From a virus (taxonomy: Duplodnaviria; Caudoviricetes), in the IMG/VR virus record IMGVR_UViG_3300037558_000833, positions 1 through 35,564 of that record: a stretch of 35,564 nt of DNA, one strand, 5' to 3'. A model generated the notes under the pieces. The model ran no database searches, was not told the origin of the DNA, and saw only the letters and a program-made list of their open reading frames with translations. Positions 4,450 through 25,769 of this stretch are shown here, piece by piece; within the stretch, counting starts at the first letter, position 1, and each line of letters begins with the position of its first letter. The translations under genes and the position numbers were made by a program.

Positions 4450-5947
4450 AACTCCCCAACGTCGTGTGTTTACTCCAGAACTCAAAAGGATCAAAGGTGC
4501 CGTCTGCCAGGCTTCCGACTGCTACGCTGGGCCGTGGGGCAATGTTGTTGGTTGTGGCGTATCTGAGGCTCTGACAGGCGTATCTGGTTGCACTCATCAA
4601 ATCATCAACCTTGCGGATGATCTTCCCATCCTTTCGGTGGTACATCCTAAATTCTTGGAACCAGGTGTCACAATGGTTAAAGACTTTGAAACGTCCTGTC
4701 TGCATTCTTGTCAACAGCGCCATGATCCCAGGTTCCACTGCAATGCCACCTTCTGGGTTCGTATAATGGCTACCAAGGAACCGTATCCCTGCTCTGCGGT
4801 ACTGTGTTGCTAGCGCTTCACCGGAACCCTTATCATGGATTGAACCGTCATGTGGCCACGCAACAGGAATCCAAGCGCCACGGTGTTTGATTGCTTCAGC
4901 GTGTTGAAGCATCCCTGAACCCTTTTCCCGATATGCATCATACAGATACACCGTGTCAGTGTCGCGGTCATGGGCCAGCCACACGACAGCTGTGGGGTGG
5001 TCAAATCCAAAATCAATCCCAGCGATGCGGCTCCAGTGTTCAGGGATCGGGAAACTTGGGCAACTGATGTTATCTTCTGGAACAGGAAACACCTGTCCGC
5101 TTCCAAGCATTGGGATGCCTTTAGAACGCATCAGCCGTTCATGCGGCGGTAGGGCGGCTAAAATTTCTTCGCGTACTTCCAAACTAAGATGAGGACTATC
5201 GTCCCAGGTGGCCTGAACTAATGCCTGACCTTTTTTGCGCTCATTCAAAAACATTCCAACGACACCGGTCACCCCGTTCTCAGGCGTAAAGGTCAAAACT
5301 ACTGGGCCACCAGACTTCAAAGTACCGCGAAGAGCTTGCGAATATATTTCTTGCGGTGGCTCCTCATCAAGCCAGACATAATCAATGGCCACACCCATCC
5401 AGGCACTAGGCCCAGAGTCGTATGACTTAAACTGCAAGCGACTGTTCCTGCCACTAACATGCTTGACCAGAGCAAAACCTAAAGCGTTAGGGACACCAGG
5501 ATTCCGCTCCGTCTTGACAATCAGATCCCTTGGGATTGCTGCTGTGCCAAAAGCTTCAGGGTCACCTGCCTGTCCAAGCAACTCCGCTTGAACAATGTCT
5601 CGTGTTGCATAGTGGGACTTCCCTGCAGCCCAACAATGGATCTCGCGATCAAAGCGGTGACCTGTCCACCAATCTGGGTATAACCCTGTCAGGTGGTAGG
5701 CCACTTCCATCGCACCAGAGTAGGTCTTGCCGGTCTTGTTACCTGCCATTAAACAACGTTGCCGTGCCCGGTGGCCCTGATCGTCCAACGCTTCATGGAA
5801 ACGTAACTGAAAAGGGTACGGCTCATAAAAATCAAACGAGCGGGTACGCCGCGTTTCTTCGTACAAGTCACGCAACTTCAGAACTTCATCAACTTCTTCA
5901 AGCCATTGCTCCTGAACGTATTCGTCTGCTTGCTGTCGGGTCGTCAC
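4436..5947 (-). CDS. terL: Terminase large subunit
   Basis: Q motif YPFQ, Walker A AGNKTGKT, Walker B VWLDEE, coupling motif TFTP, nuclease GIDFG...HD...DDLMSA. Confidence 0.97.
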   Translation of the reverse strand: MTTRQQADEYVQEQWLEEVDEVLKLRDLYEETRRTRSFDFYEPYPFQLRFHEALDDQGHRARQRCLMAGNKTGKTYSGAMEVAYHLTGLYPDWWTGHRFDREIHCWAAGKSHYATRDIVQAELLGQAGDPEAFGTAAIPRDLIVKTERNPGVPNALGFALVKHVSGRNSRLQFKSYDSGPSAWMGVAIDYVWLDEEPPQEIYSQALRGTLKSGGPVVLTFTPENGVTGVVGMFLNERKKGQALVQATWDDSPHLSLEVREEILAALPPHERLMRSKGIPMLGSGQVFPVPEDNISCPSFPIPEHWSRIAGIDFGFDHPTAVVWLAHDRDTDTVYLYDAYREKGSGMLQHAEAIKHRGAWIPVAWPHDGSIHDKGSGEALATQYRRAGIRFLGSHYTNPEGGIAVEPGIMALLTRMQTGRFKVFNHCDTWFQEFRMYHRKDGKIIRKVDDLMSATRYACQSLRYATTNNIAPRPSVAVGSLADGTFDPFEFWSKHTTLGSYGPN

Positions 5948-6054
5948 TTCTTCTTCTTCGCTTTCTTCTTGGCAGCCTTGGCAGCCTTAATCCCTGCAGG
6001 TGTGTAAGGGAATTTTTTCTTCTTACCCGTTTTCGGATCAGTAACCATTGGCAT
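5944..6054 (-). CDS. Small Lys-rich protein (36 aa, MPMVTDPKTGKKKKFPYTPAGIKAAKAAKKKAKKKK)
   Basis: Read directly, not in track. GGAG RBS. GTGA overlap with the terL start. Confidence 0.8.
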   Translation of the reverse strand: MPMVTDPKTGKKKKFPYTPAGIKAAKAAKKKAKKKK

Positions 6055-6056
6055 GA

Positions 6057-6227
6057 CTAACTCCTTTTTTTAGGTTCCCGTTTTGCAGTCTTCGCTGAGT
6101 CCTTAAAGGCTTTCGACGTCGGAGCGCCCTTGTCACCCGGTTTGCGCATTTTCTCCTTAGAGCCCGCTTTTATGCGACGCTTCTTGGCATGAATGTTGGC
6201 GTATAAGCCCGGCTTTTTCTTCTTCAC
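6057..6227 (-). CDS. Small basic protein (56 aa, ...GLYANIHAKKRRIKAGSKEKMRKPGDKGAPT...), family common in aquatic phages
   Basis: Read directly, not in track. GTG start with GGAG RBS. Recognisable GLYANIHAK motif. Confidence 0.8.
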   Translation of the reverse strand: MKKKKPGLYANIHAKKRRIKAGSKEKMRKPGDKGAPTSKAFKDSAKTAKREPKKRS

Positions 6228-7739: not shown

Positions 7740-8156
7740 TTGGGTGGGAAATCACTACTTCAGCACTACTTACCTACCTTGACCGCTGTTTTGCCACAAC
7801 CAGACAGTAAGTCTACCAACGCACAGACCATGCGTGCCTGGCGTAAGGCGATGGGTCTGACACAGTTAGAACTTGGCGAGTTGCTAGGCTACTGTGTCTT
7901 TCACATCAACGCACAAGAACGCGGCGCTCATGCAGTCTGTGACTACACAATGCAGCACCTGTCAATGGTGTTTGCTATTCACAGCCTCCCGCCTGACGCA
8001 CCAGTATCTATCCTACAAGAGTTGCTCACACCACCTAGCGTAATTAATAAACGTGTGAAAGCTGCGGAGCGTCTAGCAGCACGCAAGGCGAAGAAGACCA
8101 AAGTTTCGAAGCGGAAACGCTCCAGACCGCGCAGTCCTCGCCAAAACAATCCATAA
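7740..8156 (+). CDS. XRE-family HTH protein with K/R-rich tail (true start probably 7779 or 7830)
   Basis: MRAWRKAMGLTQLELGELLG......ERG HTH pattern. Confidence 0.65.
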   Translation: MGGKSLLQHYLPTLTAVLPQPDSKSTNAQTMRAWRKAMGLTQLELGELLGYCVFHINAQERGAHAVCDYTMQHLSMVFAIHSLPPDAPVSILQELLTPPSVINKRVKAAERLAARKAKKTKVSKRKRSRPRSPRQNNP

Positions 8157-8427
8157 AACCCTTGAGCAGATTATCGGCATCTGGTTTGGCTTGATGCGGC
8201 TTGCCGTCATGGTCTTGCCGTTTACGCTTGGACCAAGAACGCGGCATGGTTAGGTAAAACCGCACGCTGAATTGATTTGGCAGCGTGAAACCTTGTTCTT
8301 CAGCGATAGCCCGCACAGCGTCACGGTATTCAAAGTACCTGACAACACAGGGACGCTTCTTCCAACGATCTGCCTGGTTCATGCGCGGAGCTGCAACCGG
8401 CACAACGTCAAACACAAATTTAGACAT
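8044..8427 (-). CDS. rusA: RusA-family Holliday junction resolvase
   Basis: MPRSWSK...H..KPDADNLLKGFMD catalytic motif. AGGA RBS. Confidence 0.9.
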   Translation of the reverse strand: MSKFVFDVVPVAAPRMNQADRWKKRPCVVRYFEYRDAVRAIAEEQGFTLPNQFSVRFYLTMPRSWSKRKRQDHDGKPHQAKPDADNLLKGFMDCFGEDCAVWSVSASKLWSSSPCVLLDAPQLSHVY

Positions 8428-8441
8428 TGCTTTGTCCTGTT

Positions 8442-8495
8442 ATATACACATGATGTGCATTTTATGCTTGCTATTATACATATGATGTATAAATT
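8442..8495. promoter_or_regulatory. Divergent promoter region with two related operator-like sites
   Basis: ATATACACATGATGTGCAT (8442-8460) and perfect inverted repeat TTATACAT-ATG-ATGTATAA (8474-8492). The second site lies between TTGCTA (8468-8473) and TAAATT (8490-8495). Confidence 0.65.
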
Positions 8496-8549
8496 AGGTT
8501 GTGTGCTGGCAATCACGCCAGTGTTTTTCTAACTCAATCGGGAACTACA

Positions 8550-8855
8550 ATGAAACAAACAATAAATTTCTACACTTTCCGCGATGCCTTCCGCGCCATA
8601 CGTCCAGACAACTTCAGCGCGGAAGGTCTTTCTGTGCTCTTCGACCACCTAGAGCAATACGAAGAAGACTGCGGGCAGGAACTGGAGCTTGACGTTATCG
8701 CGTTTTGCTGTGAATACAGCGAACACACCTTGGAAGAAGCCAACCGTAATCACGGTTGGGAGTTTGAGACAATTGACGAACTCACAGAGCATCTAAGCTA
8801 CGAAACGTATGTATGCGGCATGACAGACACGACCGTTGTTTTTCAAAGTTTCTAA
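8550..8855 (+). CDS. Small acidic hypothetical protein (101 aa)
   Basis: ATG 8550. 22 D/E versus 5 K/R. NFS..GL..LF..LE...ELDVIA.CC.Y.E pattern of the kind seen in phage early genes. Confidence 0.85.
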   Translation: MKQTINFYTFRDAFRAIRPDNFSAEGLSVLFDHLEQYEEDCGQELELDVIAFCCEYSEHTLEEANRNHGWEFETIDELTEHLSYETYVCGMTDTTVVFQSF

Positions 8856-8870
8856 CCAACAAAGGACAAC

Positions 8871-9131
8871 ATGGAAATTTTAAATTTTGACACAGACACA
8901 GACGCCGGATTTGCTTGGATTATTGTGCCGCAATCCCACGGTACAGAAACTTGGACGGTTCAATGCTGTTTAACAGATAACGGAGAAATAATTGTGGAGG
9001 ACTGTGGACACAATGAAGGCATTTGCGGTGACAACAATGAAGCTCCTTTTGCTTTCTGGGGAGAGAACCGTTGCATGACGGCTTTATTCAGACATGCCAG
9101 ATCAGCAGGGATTACAGTCATTGGACTATAA
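8871..9131 (+). CDS. Small acidic Cys-containing hypothetical protein
   Basis: AAGGA RBS. 86 aa with 13 D/E and no Lys. Confidence 0.8.
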   Translation: MEILNFDTDTDAGFAWIIVPQSHGTETWTVQCCLTDNGEIIVEDCGHNEGICGDNNEAPFAFWGENRCMTALFRHARSAGITVIGL

Positions 9132-9177
9132 CCACCACACAGCCCGCCAGTGTGCGGGCATCACCAACACAGGCGAT

Positions 9178-9408
9178 ATGACACACAAAGAAATTGCTCA
9201 AGCACTGACAAAAGCACGTGGCATTTACTACCAGACCAGCGAACCGCCTACATTTGAAGACTTGCTGGAAATGGTAGAAGAAGCCGACAATGCGTTAGCT
9301 GATTCGTTTGGACGTTATGATCATGTGACGATCCAAGCAGTTGTGCGTAAAATGCTGAAAGAAGCTGATTCAGCTTCCCGTATCTGCGCCAATCCACACA
9401 CGATTTAA
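9178..9408 (+). CDS. Small helical hypothetical protein (76 aa)
   Basis: ATG 9178 with AGG RBS after a GC hairpin. Confidence 0.75.
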   Translation: MTHKEIAQALTKARGIYYQTSEPPTFEDLLEMVEEADNALADSFGRYDHVTIQAVVRKMLKEADSASRICANPHTI

Positions 9409-9470
9409 TTTTTTGCAGTGGCGTTGCGTCCTAGGTGGCGTTGCGTCCTGCACTTCTAACCTAAAAACTT

Positions 9471-9650
9471 ATGACTGCTGAAGAATTCCGCGACAGCCGC
9501 AAAGCGCTTGGCTTGTCTATGGCAGCTGCGTCCCGTCGCTGCAAAATACCCTACCGAACTTGGCAAGCCTGGGAAGACGGCACCAACCGTGTTCCGAACT
9601 ACGCATTCTGTTTCCTGTTCTACCTGCGCCATACATCACCCACTCAGTGA
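9471..9650 (+). CDS. XRE-family HTH protein (59 aa), Aca2-N-terminal-like
   Basis: Read directly, not in track: MTAEEFRDSRKALGLSMAAASRRCKIPYRTWQAWEDGTNRVPNYAFCFLFYLRHTSPTQ. Confidence 0.85.
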   Translation: MTAEEFRDSRKALGLSMAAASRRCKIPYRTWQAWEDGTNRVPNYAFCFLFYLRHTSPTQ

Positions 9651-9986
9651 CGTTGCGTCCACAGGAGTGGCGTTGCGTCTCGCCAGCTCTAACAGCCTGG
9701 GTAGGTACTTGCGCCCAAGCTCTGTGACTTTCTGCTTGTCCAACACCTGTGCTGCTGGTGACGTTGCGGCTGGCTGTGTTCGCAGCACTTTCCAGATTTG
9801 CCCCTGTGTTGGCAGATAGCGGTCTTCTGTGCTGAAGAGTAACTGGCGTTGCGCCCGCTCAAAGTCTTCATCGCTGACGGTTTTAAAAACTTCAAACCAC
9901 TCTGAGGCTTGGTCGCTTGTAATAGTCCGACCAGTGTTCGCCGCCCAACTCTTCAGTGATCGGGCTATCGTTTCCCTGCTTGCCAT
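9636..9986 (-). CDS. Putative replicative helicase loader/inhibitor (SPP1 G39P/lambda P position)
   Basis: W...F..V.DE.F..A...L......Y.PT.GQI pattern. Directly follows the initiator. GAGG RBS. Confidence 0.6.
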   Translation of the reverse strand: MASRETIARSLKSWAANTGRTITSDQASEWFEVFKTVSDEDFERAQRQLLFSTEDRYLPTQGQIWKVLRTQPAATSPAAQVLDKQKVTELGRKYLPRLLELARRNATPVDATSLSG

Positions 9987-10737
9987 GATTATCCTCGTTT
10001 AGAAAATTGTCTAAAACGGTTTGGTTTTTTTCATCAGCGCTCTGGTAGCGTGGTGACGTTGCGTTCTGCTTGGGTGCAAAGACGCCAACCCACCCATTCA
10101 TGATGGAAGTATCCAAGCACTGTCGTGCTTCGGCTTCTGAAAAGTCAGCCGCTACTTGTTCAAGCGTTTTCAGGATTCGCGTTTCGGCTAGTGGCGTGAT
10201 TGGTTTCTTGAGCAGTTTGCGATGTTCGGCAAAGTCTTTCCAAAGCTCTGGAAACAACCACGGCGGTAACGCCGAATTTGTTTTTTCTTTTTGGTTTACT
10301 TTTTCTTTATTAGTTTCTTTTAATATAATAGGTACTACATGACCAGAAACGACCTTCTGGTTAAGTAGGCCTACATGACCAGAAACGACCTTCTGGTTTG
10401 GTAGGGATTCTGGCTCTGCAATTTCACCCATGTCTTGAGCCATTTTTTCTCCCTGATTAACGTCCCAGATCCATGAAATTACATGCCCTTGGTCGTTGCG
10501 TTCAGAACGCCTTTCCAGATAGCCTGCTTCTTGTAGTTCGGCTAGGACTTTACGGACACGCAGTCGACCTTCATCACAATGCTTGTGAATCCAGTCAGCG
10601 GTCACCTTGAAGTTGGGTGGATAGGACAGCAGAACAGCAAGCAAGCCCTTCGCTAGTAGGCTCAAGCCGCTGGACTGTAGGACTTTATTGCTGATTTGCG
10701 TGTAGCCGTCACCGGCTGGAACTTGCTTGTGTATCAT
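9892..10737 (-). CDS. Phage replication initiator (lambda O-like)
   Basis: N-terminal winged HTH (YTQISN..L....LS..AKGLL..LLS). Central iteron-encoded repeat. C-terminal P.WL..ELW..F..HR...KP.T...SI.NGW.G.F. Confidence 0.85.
   Translation of the reverse strand: MIHKQVPAGDGYTQISNKVLQSSGLSLLAKGLLAVLLSYPPNFKVTADWIHKHCDEGRLRVRKVLAELQEAGYLERRSERNDQGHVISWIWDVNQGEKMAQDMGEIAEPESLPNQKVVSGHVGLLNQKVVSGHVVPIILKETNKEKVNQKEKTNSALPPWLFPELWKDFAEHRKLLKKPITPLAETRILKTLEQVAADFSEAEARQCLDTSIMNGWVGVFAPKQNATSPRYQSADEKNQTVLDNFLNEDNHGKQGNDSPITEELGGEHWSDYYKRPSLRVV
10275..10398. repeat. Probable replication origin: two 28-bp iterons plus AT-rich tract
   Basis: CTACATGACCAGAAACGACCTTCTGGTT at 10335-10362 and 10371-10398 (36-bp period). 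T-rich tract at about 10275-10330. Lies inside the initiator gene. Confidence 0.75.
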
Positions 10738-14414: not shown

Positions 14415-14849
14415 ATGATTGAACCTCCTGAAATTATTGAACGAATTAATTTTTATGTAAGGCAAAAAGGTGGGAATAAAAGCGCTTTAGCCCGTGATTG
14501 GGGCATTTCACCCAGTCATTTGGGAGTAGTGCTGAAAGGTACAAGGCAAGTTTCGGCAACAATGCTTAAAAATGCTTTAGCACAAGGTTATAATACTGAA
14601 TGGTTGTTGACTGGCGAAGGCTCGCCATATTTAGCGTCTAAAGCCAAAGAAATTGGGCTTCAAACGTCTATTTTTAAACATGGCGAGGACTACCGCGATG
14701 AATTGATATCATCTAAAGATGATGTGATTGCGTTGCTTCGCAAAGAAAACGAAAGACTGGAACAGGAGCTTTTAACAAAAAAAGTACTGGGGGTAGCGAC
14801 CAAGAAGAAAAGCGCGAAAATCGTGCATCTAAAAACAATTAACGGTTAA
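14415..14849 (+). CDS. CI-like XRE repressor without S24 peptidase domain
   Basis: KSALARDWGISPSHL HTH, N.EWLLTGEG motif, C-terminal coiled coil. Confidence 0.85.
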   Translation: MIEPPEIIERINFYVRQKGGNKSALARDWGISPSHLGVVLKGTRQVSATMLKNALAQGYNTEWLLTGEGSPYLASKAKEIGLQTSIFKHGEDYRDELISSKDDVIALLRKENERLEQELLTKKVLGVATKKKSAKIVHLKTING

Positions 14850-15992: not shown

Positions 15993-16202
15993 GTGTTGCC
16001 AATACACTGAGAACAAGAACTGTTGCCAATGCGGGGAACCCAGACAACGTAAGGGATGTAGGCTTTTTAAGCGCATTATTCATAATCGCAAGGTCGGGAG
16101 TTCAAGTCTCCTCTCTGCTACCAACAAAATCAGTGACTTAGCGCACTCAGTAAAACCCAGAACGTCACCGCCCACACTGGCAACACTGAGAACAAGCAAC
16201 AC
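15992..16202. other. attP: core = 3' half of tRNA(CAT) (about 16078-16123) with arm-type repeats and an IHF-like site
   Basis: ATTCATAATCGCAAGGTC-GGGAG-TTCAAGT-CTCCT-CTCTGCT-A-CCA. ACACTGAGAACAAG at 16004 and 16183. AGTGTTGCCA at 15992, TGTTGCCA at 16021, inverted TGGCAACACT at 16178. AATCAGTGACTTA at 16128. Confidence 0.88.
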
Positions 16203-21473: not shown

Positions 21474-23974
21474 CTGTAGCCTCCGCCACGCGCAATCACG
21501 CTGCTTGGTGTCATGTCAAAACCAAAATAACTGTTGTAGTCCTGGTTGTTCTTTTGTTTAAATCTACGTTCCATGCGTTGCAGGCTGCCAGGGTTAAGGA
21601 TTTCTTGAACCTGGTAGTTAATCAGATAATCAAAAGCGGTGCGTGAAGCCCACCAGTTAGCGTAAGGAATATTTCCTTTGATTGCCCGCCAGCCCGCTGC
21701 CGCTGCGTCTACCGGATCGCCTCCTTTTGCCATGTCTACGGTAGCGGCCCCAAACTCTACAAGATCGTTGAGCGTTGAACCGCTTGGACCTGCAGCTAAA
21801 TCTAAGAAACTTGTGCTGTACTGCCGGTAGTCATTGAACAGGAAGTCGCCAGCAATACCACCGAAACCCGACTGTAGCACACTGCCAACGGCAACTTTGA
21901 CTAAGTCTAAAGGGTTATCTCCCCACTTGACTTCGCGGCCTTTCATTAAGTCTTTCATCGCCATTGCTCCGTACCCTACGGCGACCATTGGGGCAAGGTG
22001 CATCATCGCTGGGGCACCCATCTCGTAAGCCCTAGGCCATTGGCGAAACAACATAGTCAGACCAAAGCTACGGAACTGCCAGAAAAGCTTATTAGCCATT
22101 GCACTGCGAGTCCCTGCCTGGATTCCTTCATCGCCCGTAATAAACCGACCCATAAAAGCACGCTCGTTAGCCCCTGGCTGCAGAACAGCAAACTCGTTTT
22201 CTGTAATCAATACTTGCTGAATCTTTTCTGCTAACTGCTGGCTGCGTGGGATGGAATCGCCGGTGATGTTGCCTAGATCAATTTCATCAAAAACCCGTGT
22301 GGGACTAATGACATCAAGGCCATTAATCTTTTCAGTCGGTAAGCCGGCAACGTCTTTCCAGTCAGTATCAGTGATCCCATATCGCTCCAAAAGCCGCTTG
22401 TAGTTTGGGTTTAATTGGTCCCAACGTAACTTGGAAGCATCGGCCATGTCGCTGGCCATCAGATAGGCGGCACCTTCACGGTAGAAGTTTGTCCAGCCAC
22501 TCAGACCGTTGAGCCTAAAAAAATTATTGATGGCCCCTTGCATGTAATCAGTGGTGTCTCTTGCTCCTGACCAGCGGCTAGCTGCCGACCCAATAATCCC
22601 ATCAAAGCCCAGTCCCATCTTGCGGGCAAACATTTCAATTTCTTTGCTTTTGCCCCGCTGAATAAGGCGCATCACGCCGACATTCAAGAAAGCGTTGTAG
22701 TACGCTGTAAAGAAATTTTTACCATGATAATGCTGGGTGAACGCAACATAGATCGGATCTGTCGTGCTACTAAAAATTGCACTGCCCAGCTTGCTTAGAT
22801 TCTGAATTGCCGCAATGCCCTGAGTCATTTTATGACGGGCTGGGTTCGCTACTTCAAAGGCAGCTCCGCTGACCTGGTTATACTCAGACTTCAGCATTGT
22901 CCGTTGGTCTGGGTCAAAATCTTGGCGTTCCAACAAACGTTTAAAAGTGCCATCTGGATTGGCACCAAAAACCTTGATTAACTCCAAGCTGTCGCTCAGC
23001 CGCTCTACGCCTTGCACAATGGCTTGTACAGCGTTGCTGTGTCCGTATTTTTTGTTGTAGTCAATCCAAGCTGCAGAATCCTTGAAGTGTAGTTGACGGC
23101 TCTGACTGATCTTACTGCTAAGACTGCGGCGTCCCACACCTACTTCACTGACCAGTTCCACTGTCTGGCGCTTGCCGCTTTTAATGTTGTTGTAGACGGC
23201 TTCTAGAAACTCACGACGCTTGGCAGAGTCTGCACTAATAAAGGTGCGGCTTTCGTCTAACAACGGTTCAATGTCTCGTAACCAAGTGTCAAAACCGGCT
23301 TTGCCAATGGCTGCAGAGTCATGAGTCTGTGTCGTAACATGGTCATCAAGCCAACTGATCGGCACACCTTCGGCCTGAAGCTGATTAATCATATCGCGTT
23401 TTTCTTTCAGCACCGCTTCAGCCATCATGCGGGCTTCTGCATTACCGCTGGTGCCTAGCCCGTCAAACAATTCTTCAATTAGTGCAGTTTGAAACTCTTC
23501 ATCGTCAAACAGACCTTTACCAAATGGGAAGCGCCCAAACACGGTAGGGCGGCTAAGTTGCAGATTGTTTTTGCCAAAGACACTTAGAATGCGCCCATAG
23601 CGCAGCTTGCCCATTGCCACCTGTTTGCTGGCAATACTGTCTAGTGCTTCAAAACCACGCTTGGCGCTACCTACAAGCATCCGGCTTAGTGTCGCTTCTT
23701 TGTCGTTACCTGCGTCCATCTTCTTATCAAGCACTTCATTGGTGAAGACTTGGTTTTTGCGTGCGCGGCGTTTTTGTACCAACTCAAACTTATGTTTAGC
23801 GGTCAAGTCTTCTGCTACTTTGCGGAACTGAATCGTGTAATCACCGCGTGATTTTGCCCGAATGTTCTTTTGCTCATTCCGCAGTTGGTCAACCAGGTCT
23901 TTGGCTTCTGTTTCAGTCAGCCCAAATTTTGTGCTGTTGGCAACTCCAAGGCAGGGATCTATTTTTTTAGCCAT
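21470..23974 (-). CDS. Internal virion (ejection) protein, largest conserved core type
   Basis: 834 aa. R.LHFKD, KLGSA..SS..D, QF.SF, G.GG..GD motifs as in BPP-1/epsilon15-like core proteins. Confidence 0.8.
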   Translation of the reverse strand: MAKKIDPCLGVANSTKFGLTETEAKDLVDQLRNEQKNIRAKSRGDYTIQFRKVAEDLTAKHKFELVQKRRARKNQVFTNEVLDKKMDAGNDKEATLSRMLVGSAKRGFEALDSIASKQVAMGKLRYGRILSVFGKNNLQLSRPTVFGRFPFGKGLFDDEEFQTALIEELFDGLGTSGNAEARMMAEAVLKEKRDMINQLQAEGVPISWLDDHVTTQTHDSAAIGKAGFDTWLRDIEPLLDESRTFISADSAKRREFLEAVYNNIKSGKRQTVELVSEVGVGRRSLSSKISQSRQLHFKDSAAWIDYNKKYGHSNAVQAIVQGVERLSDSLELIKVFGANPDGTFKRLLERQDFDPDQRTMLKSEYNQVSGAAFEVANPARHKMTQGIAAIQNLSKLGSAIFSSTTDPIYVAFTQHYHGKNFFTAYYNAFLNVGVMRLIQRGKSKEIEMFARKMGLGFDGIIGSAASRWSGARDTTDYMQGAINNFFRLNGLSGWTNFYREGAAYLMASDMADASKLRWDQLNPNYKRLLERYGITDTDWKDVAGLPTEKINGLDVISPTRVFDEIDLGNITGDSIPRSQQLAEKIQQVLITENEFAVLQPGANERAFMGRFITGDEGIQAGTRSAMANKLFWQFRSFGLTMLFRQWPRAYEMGAPAMMHLAPMVAVGYGAMAMKDLMKGREVKWGDNPLDLVKVAVGSVLQSGFGGIAGDFLFNDYRQYSTSFLDLAAGPSGSTLNDLVEFGAATVDMAKGGDPVDAAAAGWRAIKGNIPYANWWASRTAFDYLINYQVQEILNPGSLQRMERRFKQKNNQDYNSYFGFDMTPSSVIARGGGYR

Positions 23975-25769
23975 TGTCTATCATACATTCTGTGACTTCA
24001 AAAACTGCGTCGTGAAAACTTTTTTGGGCCTTTACTTCTTCATCAATTTCCGCGATCGCACGGGCATCTTCTTCTTTCAGTGTGTCGTTCTCCTCTTTTG
24101 TACGAATACGTTCATCTTGCTTGGCTTCGGCTTCTTGTAATCGTGATTCATTAGCGCTGATTGGGATGTCATCCGGTGGTGGTAACTCTTTTAATGCAGG
24201 TCGTGGCGTGTTCCAAACTTTATCGGGTATCAGTTCGTTTTTTTGAAAATCAAAACGGCCTGGGTTGTAGATCGACTTAACGAGTTTCGGGTCAAAGATT
24301 GCCAGACTTGGTTTTTGCTGGCCGCCTTCTTCTATCCAAACAGCGTCGTAGCCTTTGTCTTTAAAATGTTTAGACCCAAGTTTTTCGGCGTCCTGCCATT
24401 TCATCGCCGGTGCGTCTTCAGAACCAAGCACCTTCTTGGCGTTGATGTAGACAGGCAGTACGTTGTCACCTTGGTAATTACTTTCGTAAAGCCGCTCAAA
24501 TTCTTTAGCAAAAGACGTTTTGTTTTTTGTCGCATTCTTAGCGATTGCATCAGCGTCTAAGTAATTGTAGCTATCGTTTTTTAGTGCTTTGCGTAATTTG
24601 CGGGCATCTAATACCTTGCCTGTTTTGAGATCAAAAACGCCTGGGTTTTCTTGTGCCAAAATTTGGAAATCAGTTTTAAATTCTAAAGAGCCTTTTGCTG
24701 CTGCGAACCCAGATGCCTCATCAGCGTTAGGTGTAAAATAAATTAACCCACCACGCGTATTTTGTGTTGTAAACGCTTTAATTTCTTGACCTGTGCCGTG
24801 ATACATCACTCGCGGTGTGCCATCGCTATTGATGATCTGGCTGTCTGCAAACGCTTCTTTAGCTGCCTGCATTCTTGCCGCCTGCTGTGCAATCGCTTGC
24901 TCCGCACCTTTCTGCCGTGGCACCGGCAAGCGGTTCTGCACACCCGCACTCTGTGACGCCAATTCTGCGTCTACTGCCTGCTTTTTCGTGACTGGGTCTA
25001 CAGAGTCCCAAGCACGCTCTGACGCAGTAGGTCGTGCGCTTGGCGCTTCTTCCTTAAACTCGACTTCGCCTTGCCGGTTGACCGCAACGGTGTTGGCTTC
25101 CTGCCTATTTCTTGGATCTGGGTCTTTCGGATGAACCCGCCCAAGTGCGGCACCCAGGCCAAAGCCTAGCCCTAGCGCCAGTCCTAGTTCGGTCAGGGCA
25201 TCGCGTGTGTCGTACTTCAGTTGGTAGGTGTCTCGTTCGGCAGCAACCAAAGGTTGAATCAAGGCAGTACCTAGCACCGCATCAGCGGCAGTGGTAGCAC
25301 CACGACCTAGCCTCCCAGATTGTGCAATCTTGCCCAACACGGCGGCGCTCTTGGCTTTGGATGCAATGCCTACAAAGGGTATGTAGTTGACCGGATCGGG
25401 CACCGTACCAACCAATGCACCTGCATAGAAGCTGGCAGTAGCTCCTGCGCCTGCACGCTCTAGCAAAAACCCTAGTTCGCGTTCGCGGTCACGGCGTTCC
25501 TTTAACAGTCTTGCTTTGGGTGTCGTGAAGCTATCGTCCCACTTGATTGCTTCATCAAAGAACTTACTGGCTTCCCAGTCTTGCTTGGTCAGCAATGGCT
25601 GGTTTTCTGCTTTGTCCATTTCCATCACCGACTGCATCAGCATAAAGCTGACATCTCGGAAACCGGCACCAATGCCTTCAGAAAACATCATGCCTGCTGA
25701 TGGCCGGTAGTTTTTCAAAAACTCTTCTTTCGCACCTGGATAGTCGCGGTGTTCGCTGTAGTACATCAT
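23967..25769 (-). CDS. Internal virion protein with inserted ART-PolyVal-like ADP-ribosyltransferase domain
   Basis: N-terminal DP.NYIP and G/A-rich hydrophobic helices. Domain at about 24249-24845: DG.P.V.YHGT, IYFT, V.PVYI, GYD.V, FDP..VKS..N.G.FD. Confidence 0.8.
   Translation of the reverse strand: MMYYSEHRDYPGAKEEFLKNYRPSAGMMFSEGIGAGFRDVSFMLMQSVMEMDKAENQPLLTKQDWEASKFFDEAIKWDDSFTTPKARLLKERRDRERELGFLLERAGAGATASFYAGALVGTVPDPVNYIPFVGIASKAKSAAVLGKIAQSGRLGRGATTAADAVLGTALIQPLVAAERDTYQLKYDTRDALTELGLALGLGFGLGAALGRVHPKDPDPRNRQEANTVAVNRQGEVEFKEEAPSARPTASERAWDSVDPVTKKQAVDAELASQSAGVQNRLPVPRQKGAEQAIAQQAARMQAAKEAFADSQIINSDGTPRVMYHGTGQEIKAFTTQNTRGGLIYFTPNADEASGFAAAKGSLEFKTDFQILAQENPGVFDLKTGKVLDARKLRKALKNDSYNYLDADAIAKNATKNKTSFAKEFERLYESNYQGDNVLPVYINAKKVLGSEDAPAMKWQDAEKLGSKHFKDKGYDAVWIEEGGQQKPSLAIFDPKLVKSIYNPGRFDFQKNELIPDKVWNTPRPALKELPPPDDIPISANESRLQEAEAKQDERIRTKEENDTLKEEDARAIAEIDEEVKAQKSFHDAVFEVTECMIDNG

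Follow-up and report, generated by a model that had tools for sequence, protein, structure and literature searches.

A predicted Aca-like autoregulated, linker-shuffled early gene array, probably for counter-defense, in a temperate podovirus-like phage

Phage genome and location of the cassette

The window, which is the whole stretch of viral DNA analyzed here, is a single contig of 35,564 bases. It carries genes for a portal protein, terminases, T7-type virion proteins, an integrase, a CI-like repressor, an O-like initiator, and the resolvase RusA, and the phage is temperate and podovirus-like; the nearest cultured terminase is at 52%. Sequence of this phage is present in runs labeled marine metagenome (X1, which may be its source, and, in part, X2), and no RNA runs are among the listed runs that contain it. 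A GTDB search with the gene on the right flank of the cassette returned no locus, and the integrase search for a host gave one weak, unrelated match only. The 3' half of a tRNA with a CAT anticodon is found directly past the integrase gene (16069 to 16124) and, judged by eye, is a likely attP.

A plus-strand cassette interrupts the minus-strand run from rusA to the replication genes at 8428 to 9650, as a preliminary description made from the sequence had reported, about 1.1 kb upstream of the small terminase gene. The terminal HTH gene noticed in that description is indeed missing from the list of open reading frames, because its 59-aa product falls below the 60-aa cut-off. Searches with gene 1, the HTH gene, and the right-flank gene yielded 33 loci having both promoter and HTH, window included, and removal of eight duplicates left 25 distinct cassettes. 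The features of the window cassette and its flanks are as follows.

8044-8427, minus strand: rusA resolvase (PF05866), left flank, outside the cassette
8444-8458, no strand: operator 1, imperfect palindrome ATACA-N5-TGTGC, at the same position in all 25 distinct cassettes
8468-8495, plus strand: predicted sigma-70 promoter TTGCTA-16-TAAATT, by eye, 8/12 consensus
8476-8490, no strand: operator 2, palindrome ATACA-TATGA-TGTAT, in the promoter spacer
8503-8524, plus strand: 5'-UTR hairpin, stem-GC-AAUNNN-GC-stem, conserved with compensatory changes
8550-8855, plus strand: gene 1, 101 aa, acidic, large viral family (phrog_9974)
8871-9131, plus strand: gene 2, 86 aa, acidic, Cys-rich, rare
9142-9159, plus strand: linker hairpin GCCCGC-loop-GCGGGC, then C/A-rich spacer and ribosome site; 1 to 4 copies in 23/25 cassettes
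9178-9408, plus strand: gene 3, 76 aa, mildly acidic, no family assigned
9409-9470, plus strand: pre-HTH linker with T-run, tandem TGGCGTTGCGTCC, and no clear Shine-Dalgarno sequence; conserved in relatives
9471-9650, plus strand: Aca10/Aca2-like HTH, predicted autorepressor (structure and profile matches, allele-operator covariation)
9636-9986, minus strand: right-flank conserved gene after the O-like initiator, outside the cassette; 84 to 91% identity in relatives
9648-9680, plus strand: two further TGRCGTTGCGTC copies at the right boundary; the empty-site junction in L046 lies within this motif
9892-10737, minus strand: O-like initiator gene (replication genes)

The three cargo genes had been described as small and acidic, which is true of gene 1 (22 D/E versus 5 K/R in 101 aa) and gene 2 (13 D/E and no Lys), each with a pI of 4.2; in gene 3 the acidic excess is small (12 D/E, 8 K/R, pI 5.2). 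The 5' hairpin, the repeated linkers, and a TGRCGTTGCG motif were not in the preliminary description. At position 9930, within the right-flank gene, the A of the window is C in all four runs, which may reflect a variant or an error of assembly.

Promoter, operators, and 5' hairpin

The promoter-like region with two related operators holds up on comparison: both sites are imperfect palindromes that are conserved in relatives, and operator 2 is the sole perfect ATACA-N5-TGTAT in the window. Since a loose palindrome search allowing three mismatches is by itself only marginal (8 matches versus 3.7 expected, a level reached by 3 of 100 shuffles), the operators rest on this conservation. The promoter is a weak consensus match and was not listed by a sigma-70 consensus scan of the window. 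With the promoter as predicted by eye, an inverted repeat lies inside the core promoter, as in acr-aca operons. In L087, a locus of a second phage lineage, TTGACT-17-CATACT flanks the same kind of operator, and in each of the six cassettes with a methyltransferase gene, a further operator of the cassette's own type lies in the interior.

The 5' hairpin, with loop AAUNNN, is found downstream of the operator in both phage lineages. Over its 14 distinct versions, 91% of cells are paired, a value that relatedness may inflate, versus 22 to 41% in slid controls, and four of the eight pairs are altered on both sides. The window copy alone is no more stable than shuffles (z of -0.75), and an Rfam search of 8300 to 10200 gave no match.

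Cargo turnover and linkers

The 25 cassettes contain 82 called genes of at least 26 families in 24 arrangements (in both L030 and L080, about one gene escaped the gene caller); a looser count of 41 loci gives 28 families. The constant parts of the slot, which extends from rusA to the replication-operon gene, are the promoter, the two operators, the 5' hairpin, and the terminal HTH. The cargo varies across related cassettes in this neighborhood comparison, and homologs of the window genes are not fixed core genes. In L046 the cassette is absent and rusA adjoins the right flank, with the empty-site junction falling within a TGRCGTTGCGTC motif. L057 is truncated, and L032 has collapsed to a GP88-HTH fusion (5902 to 6180), in which a short microhomology joins the start of GP88 to the HTH in one reading frame and the operator type is the locus's own.

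Recognized cargo includes ArdC (PF08401 and PF18818) in two cassettes and a DNA methyltransferase (phrog_757) in six; these occupy the same first slots, and 8 of the 25 cassettes carry one or the other. The remaining 17, the window included, have no gene with a recognized counter-defense function. GP88, whose role is not known, is the commonest cargo, with 14 genes in two families, present in 11 and 3 cassettes, and DUF7699 is found in four cassettes. Half of the cargo families (13/26) have a net charge of -4 or lower. Acr models gave no match to the four window proteins or to 27 cargo representatives, in a type of scan that new Acrs escape, and a PADLOC scan returned nothing meaningful.

Alignments of relatives reveal that gene swaps terminate at linkers, with exceptions in L032 and L057, where the deletions begin inside a gene. 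The linkers comprise a first-slot leader, the GCCCGC-loop-GCGGGC hairpin, which is combined either with a ribosome site or with a T-run and TGRCGTTGCGTCC, and, ahead of the HTH, TGRCGTTGCGTCC in tandem. One linker precedes different genes, and one gene follows different linkers. The window has a single copy of the linker hairpin (z of -2.76), and its linker (9132 to 9177) has no promoter match in the sigma-70 scan. The repeats of the pre-HTH linker are at 9419 to 9431 and 9436 to 9448, and its fold is -20.7 kcal/mol (z of -2.58).

In the runs, a contig of X2 spans 8431 to 9180 and then continues into another cargo family, and a loose end at 8543 in X4 starts like ArdC (both recognized by eye). 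X1 contains a 100-base record with a linker in place of 9139 to 9430 (gene 3) beside a record that has gene 3; the joint has 30 letters per side, one below the bridging rule, may stem from a related phage in the sample, and is suggestive only as evidence of cargo replacement. Judged from the sequence comparisons, it is quite probable that cargo genes come, go, and replace one another through recombination between copies of the linkers, which we infer as was done for the PeSLs of T4-type phages (PMC2839356).

The TGRCGTTGCG motif occurs seven times in the window versus 0.19 expected, at 9419 to 10063. In the window and 22 related loci there are 116 copies on one strand and 0 on the other (151,561 bases), all at -329 to +1084 from the HTH start, and copies also lie within the flanking genes and in L046. 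Because the motif is constant across all HTH alleles, it was rejected as the HTH target; as a guess, it could act in recombination as Chi does or be bound by a protein.

The terminal HTH and its pairing with operator types

The best PDB match of the HTH is 7XI5 (E value, 8.8e-6), which we read as Aca10 because PMC9410881 names the entry and the residue numbers fit, followed by Aca2 (E value, 0.012); profile matches have E values of 2e-7 and 6e-7. Aca2 chains align over their first 43 to 50 residues, that is, within Aca2 residues 1 to 50 only. The designation of the gene as Aca2-like stands as far as Aca-like is concerned, but the protein is nearer to Aca10 and has no counterpart of the Aca2 C-terminal half. 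Membership in Aca2 was rejected, since the HTH is 59 aa without a C-terminal domain versus about 120 aa. As for Aca10, whose homologs have been collected at 50 to 100% identity and 80 to 100% cover (PMC9410906), the HTH has an identity of well under half of 51 aligned residues and falls outside the family by sequence. Its score against PF13560 is 21.2 bits, with a cut-off of 27. The HTH is 58 to 59 aa long in relatives and under purifying selection (pN/pS, 0.03 to 0.24).

Residues 33 and 38 to 40 of the HTH vary among cassettes and align with Y34 and R39 of Aca2 and Q38 and R44 of Aca10, which read DNA (PMC9410881). The equivalent of Aca10 Arg44 is absent in the window HTH, which has Asn39 there and Arg40 next to it; Arg39 is present at this position in one allele of the clade and in L086 and L087. 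The helix alleles and the operator types found with them are as follows.

AWEDGTNR: operator ATACA
DWELGNSP: operator ATACGG
DWELGNRP: operator ATACGC
QWEDGTNR: operator ATACT

Operator type tracks the recognition-helix allele in 23 of the 24 cassettes that could be read (L080, which is cut, was dropped), the exception being L077, in which a window-type helix occurs with another operator type. The adjusted mutual information between HTH allele and operator type is 0.86, compared with 0.41 for the 5' hairpin, 0.28 for the first cargo, 0.23 for the last cargo, and 0.05 for the rusA cluster. The loci form one recombining clade and are kin, which makes permutation p-values too small and overstates significance; the real control is given by the nearer-linked markers. 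For 23 loci, the operator has an adjusted mutual information of -0.09 to -0.04 with the first 15 codons of the HTH gene itself, and its type is unrelated to the linker immediately 5' of the HTH. RusA, the cargo, and these first 15 codons recombine freely.

L086 and L087 belong to a second lineage, in which the HTH is 53 to 55% identical, has D33 and R39, and lies directly after gene 3. Their promoter has the ACGCAATGCGT core, the one paired with D33/R39 in the clade. Because the helix allele matches the operator across recombinants and in the second lineage, predicted autorepression of the cassette promoter by the HTH is strongly supported. Going by the sequences, the HTH very probably binds the operators, with four helix alleles paired to four operator types. 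The regulator module of the other lineage is found beside an integrase or repressor gene (L087, 1320 to 2802; L086, 3660 to 4395), and in L087 it opens with a YccJ-like gene and its 5' hairpin recurs before the second gene.

Cargo genes of the window

Gene 1, present in 7 of the 25 cassettes, belongs to a viral family (4195 clusters at 50% identity), is under purifying selection (pN/pS, 0.23 to 0.27), and has a confident model (pLDDT, 91.7). Outside the clade, 12 of the 20 loci scanned have the homolog in divergent orientation to a terminase or portal gene, where six of the 12 are one lineage and 8 of 28 loci have no upstream ORF to scan; Psychrobacter phage D'Alembert carries a homolog as its gene 6, at the left end. 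In an unrelated phage (L024, 6001 to 8485), an ArdA gene lies between two gene 1 paralogs, the only other gene 1 locus with an anti-restriction neighbor among 91 neighbor proteins scanned. Gene 1 resembles the DNA mimics ArdA, small ArdA, and Ocr in being small, very acidic, and near the packaging module, as well as in these paralogs flanking ArdA. It differs in that it has no sequence or profile match to ArdA (hhalign probability against one ArdA profile, 0.2%) and a fold score at background level (ArdA 2W82: Z, 2.6; rmsd, 3.9; 67 aligned). PDB fold searches gave no match (Foldseek best E value, 1.3; VIA best Z, 4.0, with none of 5 or more), BFVD matches are unnamed phage proteins, and Atlas matches are unnamed viral clusters. 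The homodimer prediction is 0.24 against a mark of 0.42.

Gene 2 has four homologs (49 to 93% identity) with conserved cysteines and was not found in viral contigs. Its model (pLDDT, 89.9) has three strands followed by two helices. Fold searches gave no match beyond background-level scores for AcrF10 (6ANW: Z, 4.3; rmsd, 3.6; 72 aligned) and AcrIF13 (7FI4: Z, 3.9), which serve only as leads, and the Atlas search returned nothing. Our favored guess, which is doubtful for each of the two acidic proteins, is that genes 1 and 2 act by DNA-mimic-type binding of a DNA-sensing defense enzyme. Gene 3 is present in 3 of the 25 cassettes and travels with the HTH in two lineages, the second being that of L086 and L087. 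It is under purifying selection (pN/pS, 0.16 to 0.23) and has no match in a PDB sequence search.

Proposed function and alternatives

The cassette is probably an Aca-like autoregulated, linker-shuffled early array for counter-defense and not a demonstrated acr-aca operon. The acr-aca-like architecture first proposed is apparent in a small terminal HTH gene that ends an operon of small genes and in the repeat in the promoter; the likeness is one of regulation, because no Acr was found and the HTH belongs to neither Aca2 nor Aca10. We consider it fairly probable that the locus is a hypervariable array in which the Aca-like HTH represses its own promoter and linker-swapped cargo provides an early counter-defense burst, mainly against restriction-type systems. 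Upon phage entry, host RNA polymerase would fire the promoter because the repressor is then absent, and the cargo would be made in a burst. With its gene in last place, preceded by a hairpin and a weak ribosome site, the HTH would build up late, bind both operators, and shut the operon, which would stay off in the lysogen. If packaging is headful, the position of the cassette upstream of the small terminase gene would have it packaged last and entering early. We further hypothesize that, owing to the specificity groups, an incoming phage would escape the repressor of a resident relative.

That the cargo disarms host defense is, by association, fairly probable, and the target is probably restriction systems more than CRISPR. 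Restriction evasion is pointed to because relatives carry ArdC, which has been described to protect transferred DNA from restriction (PMC5512222), or a DNA methyltransferase. The window genes had been put forward as candidate anti-defense proteins, anti-CRISPR among them; the association with ArdC or methyltransferase genes in 8 of 25 cassettes sustains the general proposal, and the anti-CRISPR part is left without a match to Acr models.

It is improbable that the cassette is a true acr-aca operon, in which at least one window gene inhibits CRISPR-Cas and the HTH is a new Aca, although its nearest solved relatives are Aca10 and Aca2 and much of the cargo is small and acidic. Like Aca10 of the acrIC7-acrIC6-aca10 operon (7XI5; PMC9410881), it is a stand-alone HTH (59 to 65 aa) that ends an operon of small genes, with an RTWQxWExG helix and a palindromic promoter operator with an ATAC(G) half-site; the Aca10 operator and one operator type here both have the half-site ATACGC. 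The layout, with a promoter operator, often a second one upstream, a covarying hairpin between operator and first start codon, and intergenic hairpins, is as described for acr-aca1, acr-aca2, and acr-aca10 and for dual DNA/RNA regulation by Aca2 and Aca1 (PMC13551039). On the other hand, the operator here is 15 bp (5-bp arms and a 5-bp center) versus the 19-bp minimal site of Aca10 (PMC9410881), and Asn replaces Arg44 in the window allele. Unlike the acr-aca10 operon, the array contains no known acr gene in any of the 25 cassettes, falls into four helix/operator groups, and turns over its cargo through linkers. The HTH also differs from Aca2 (115 to 125 aa) in lacking the C-terminal half, and the hairpin type follows the HTH allele only loosely, unlike in the Aca2 and Aca1 systems. 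PMC13551039 states that no RNA binding by Aca10 was observed and places RM genes and many genes of no known role under Aca control, and PMC9410906 describes Aca-like genes without acr genes. The cargo recognized here is of the anti-restriction type.

Acidity is common among small phage proteins. This would also suit an autoregulated accessory operon that serves host takeover, metabolism, or inter-phage competition instead of blocking defense, an explanation that we regard as unlikely. The prevalence of GP88, the presence of DUF7699 and of the YccJ-like gene in L087, and the lack of a known role for most families are in its favor, but ArdC and the methyltransferase sit in the same first slots, and the extreme turnover together with the repressor specificity groups would fit conflict-driven selection. 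Far less probable still is that the HTH acts as a Xer activator or as a general regulator of the phage, with the palindromes serving a different protein, for example CI. The phage does encode other HTHs (7740 to 8156 and 14415 to 14849), and the HTH has a sub-threshold match to NCBIfam VC1465 (31.6 bits; cut-off, 70). However, it spans only 44 of the 111 positions of VC1465, the phage itself encodes an integrase and contains a tRNA-half attP, and the operator tracks the helix of this HTH across recombinants and lineages; identity with the VC1465 Xer activator was rejected.

Aca regulation and PeSL shuffling are known separately in the literature. As in T4-type PeSL cassettes (PMC2839356), repeated stem-loops lie between small nonessential genes, and gains, losses, and replacements end there. 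Each PeSL brings its own promoter, and in the lytic myoviruses these elements are scattered across hyperplastic regions, whereas the linkers here are promoter-less and belong to one operon with one autorepressor in a temperate podovirus-like phage. The swaps thus end at repeated elements as in PeSL-type shuffling, and the elements do not each have a sigma-70 promoter and terminator. The closest functional parallel is given by the establishment regulons with ardC of pLS20-family plasmids (PMC8708921), in which variable genes follow conserved regulatory sequences and are expressed rapidly and transiently on entry. Those are Bacillus conjugative plasmids with several operons, and the available description mentions no terminal Aca-like HTH.

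Literature searches, which covered few subscription papers, turned up no description of an array that combines linker shuffling with an Aca-like repressor whose helix alleles pair with operator alleles. The supplements of PMC13551039 (Aca10 RNA motif and protein clusters) may include some of the cargo families. A bolder reading, possible though rather doubtful, is a recombinase-free, integron-like array in which one phage population shuffles at least 26 inhibitors through linkers, with repressor specificity groups by which an incoming phage would escape silencing by a resident prophage and gene 1 representing a huge anti-defense family. If true, gene 1 would be among the largest undescribed viral anti-defense families (>4000 clusters). 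Selection by a common regulator and slot yields about 26 candidate inhibitors of defense in aquatic phages that are uncultured; the findings also offer a hypothesis on the function of the very large, unannotated family of gene 1 and extend the Aca marker to arrays without known acr genes. The natural helix/operator pairs make the DNA-recognition code of Aca-type HTHs testable, as well as the silencing by prophages of the counter-defense of incoming relatives.

Other features of the window

A second plus-strand HTH-like ORF (7740 to 8156) overlaps the end of rusA and is about 50 to 60% identical in relatives. Within the O-like initiator gene, a direct repeat of about 27 bases (10335 to 10400) likely represents iterons, and relatives have other initiator alleles with other repeats. 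Among the internal-virion genes, a minus-strand gene (23967 to 25769) encodes a protein with an ART-PolyVal ADP-ribosyltransferase domain (E value, 2.8e-10), which is possibly an injected anti-host enzyme.
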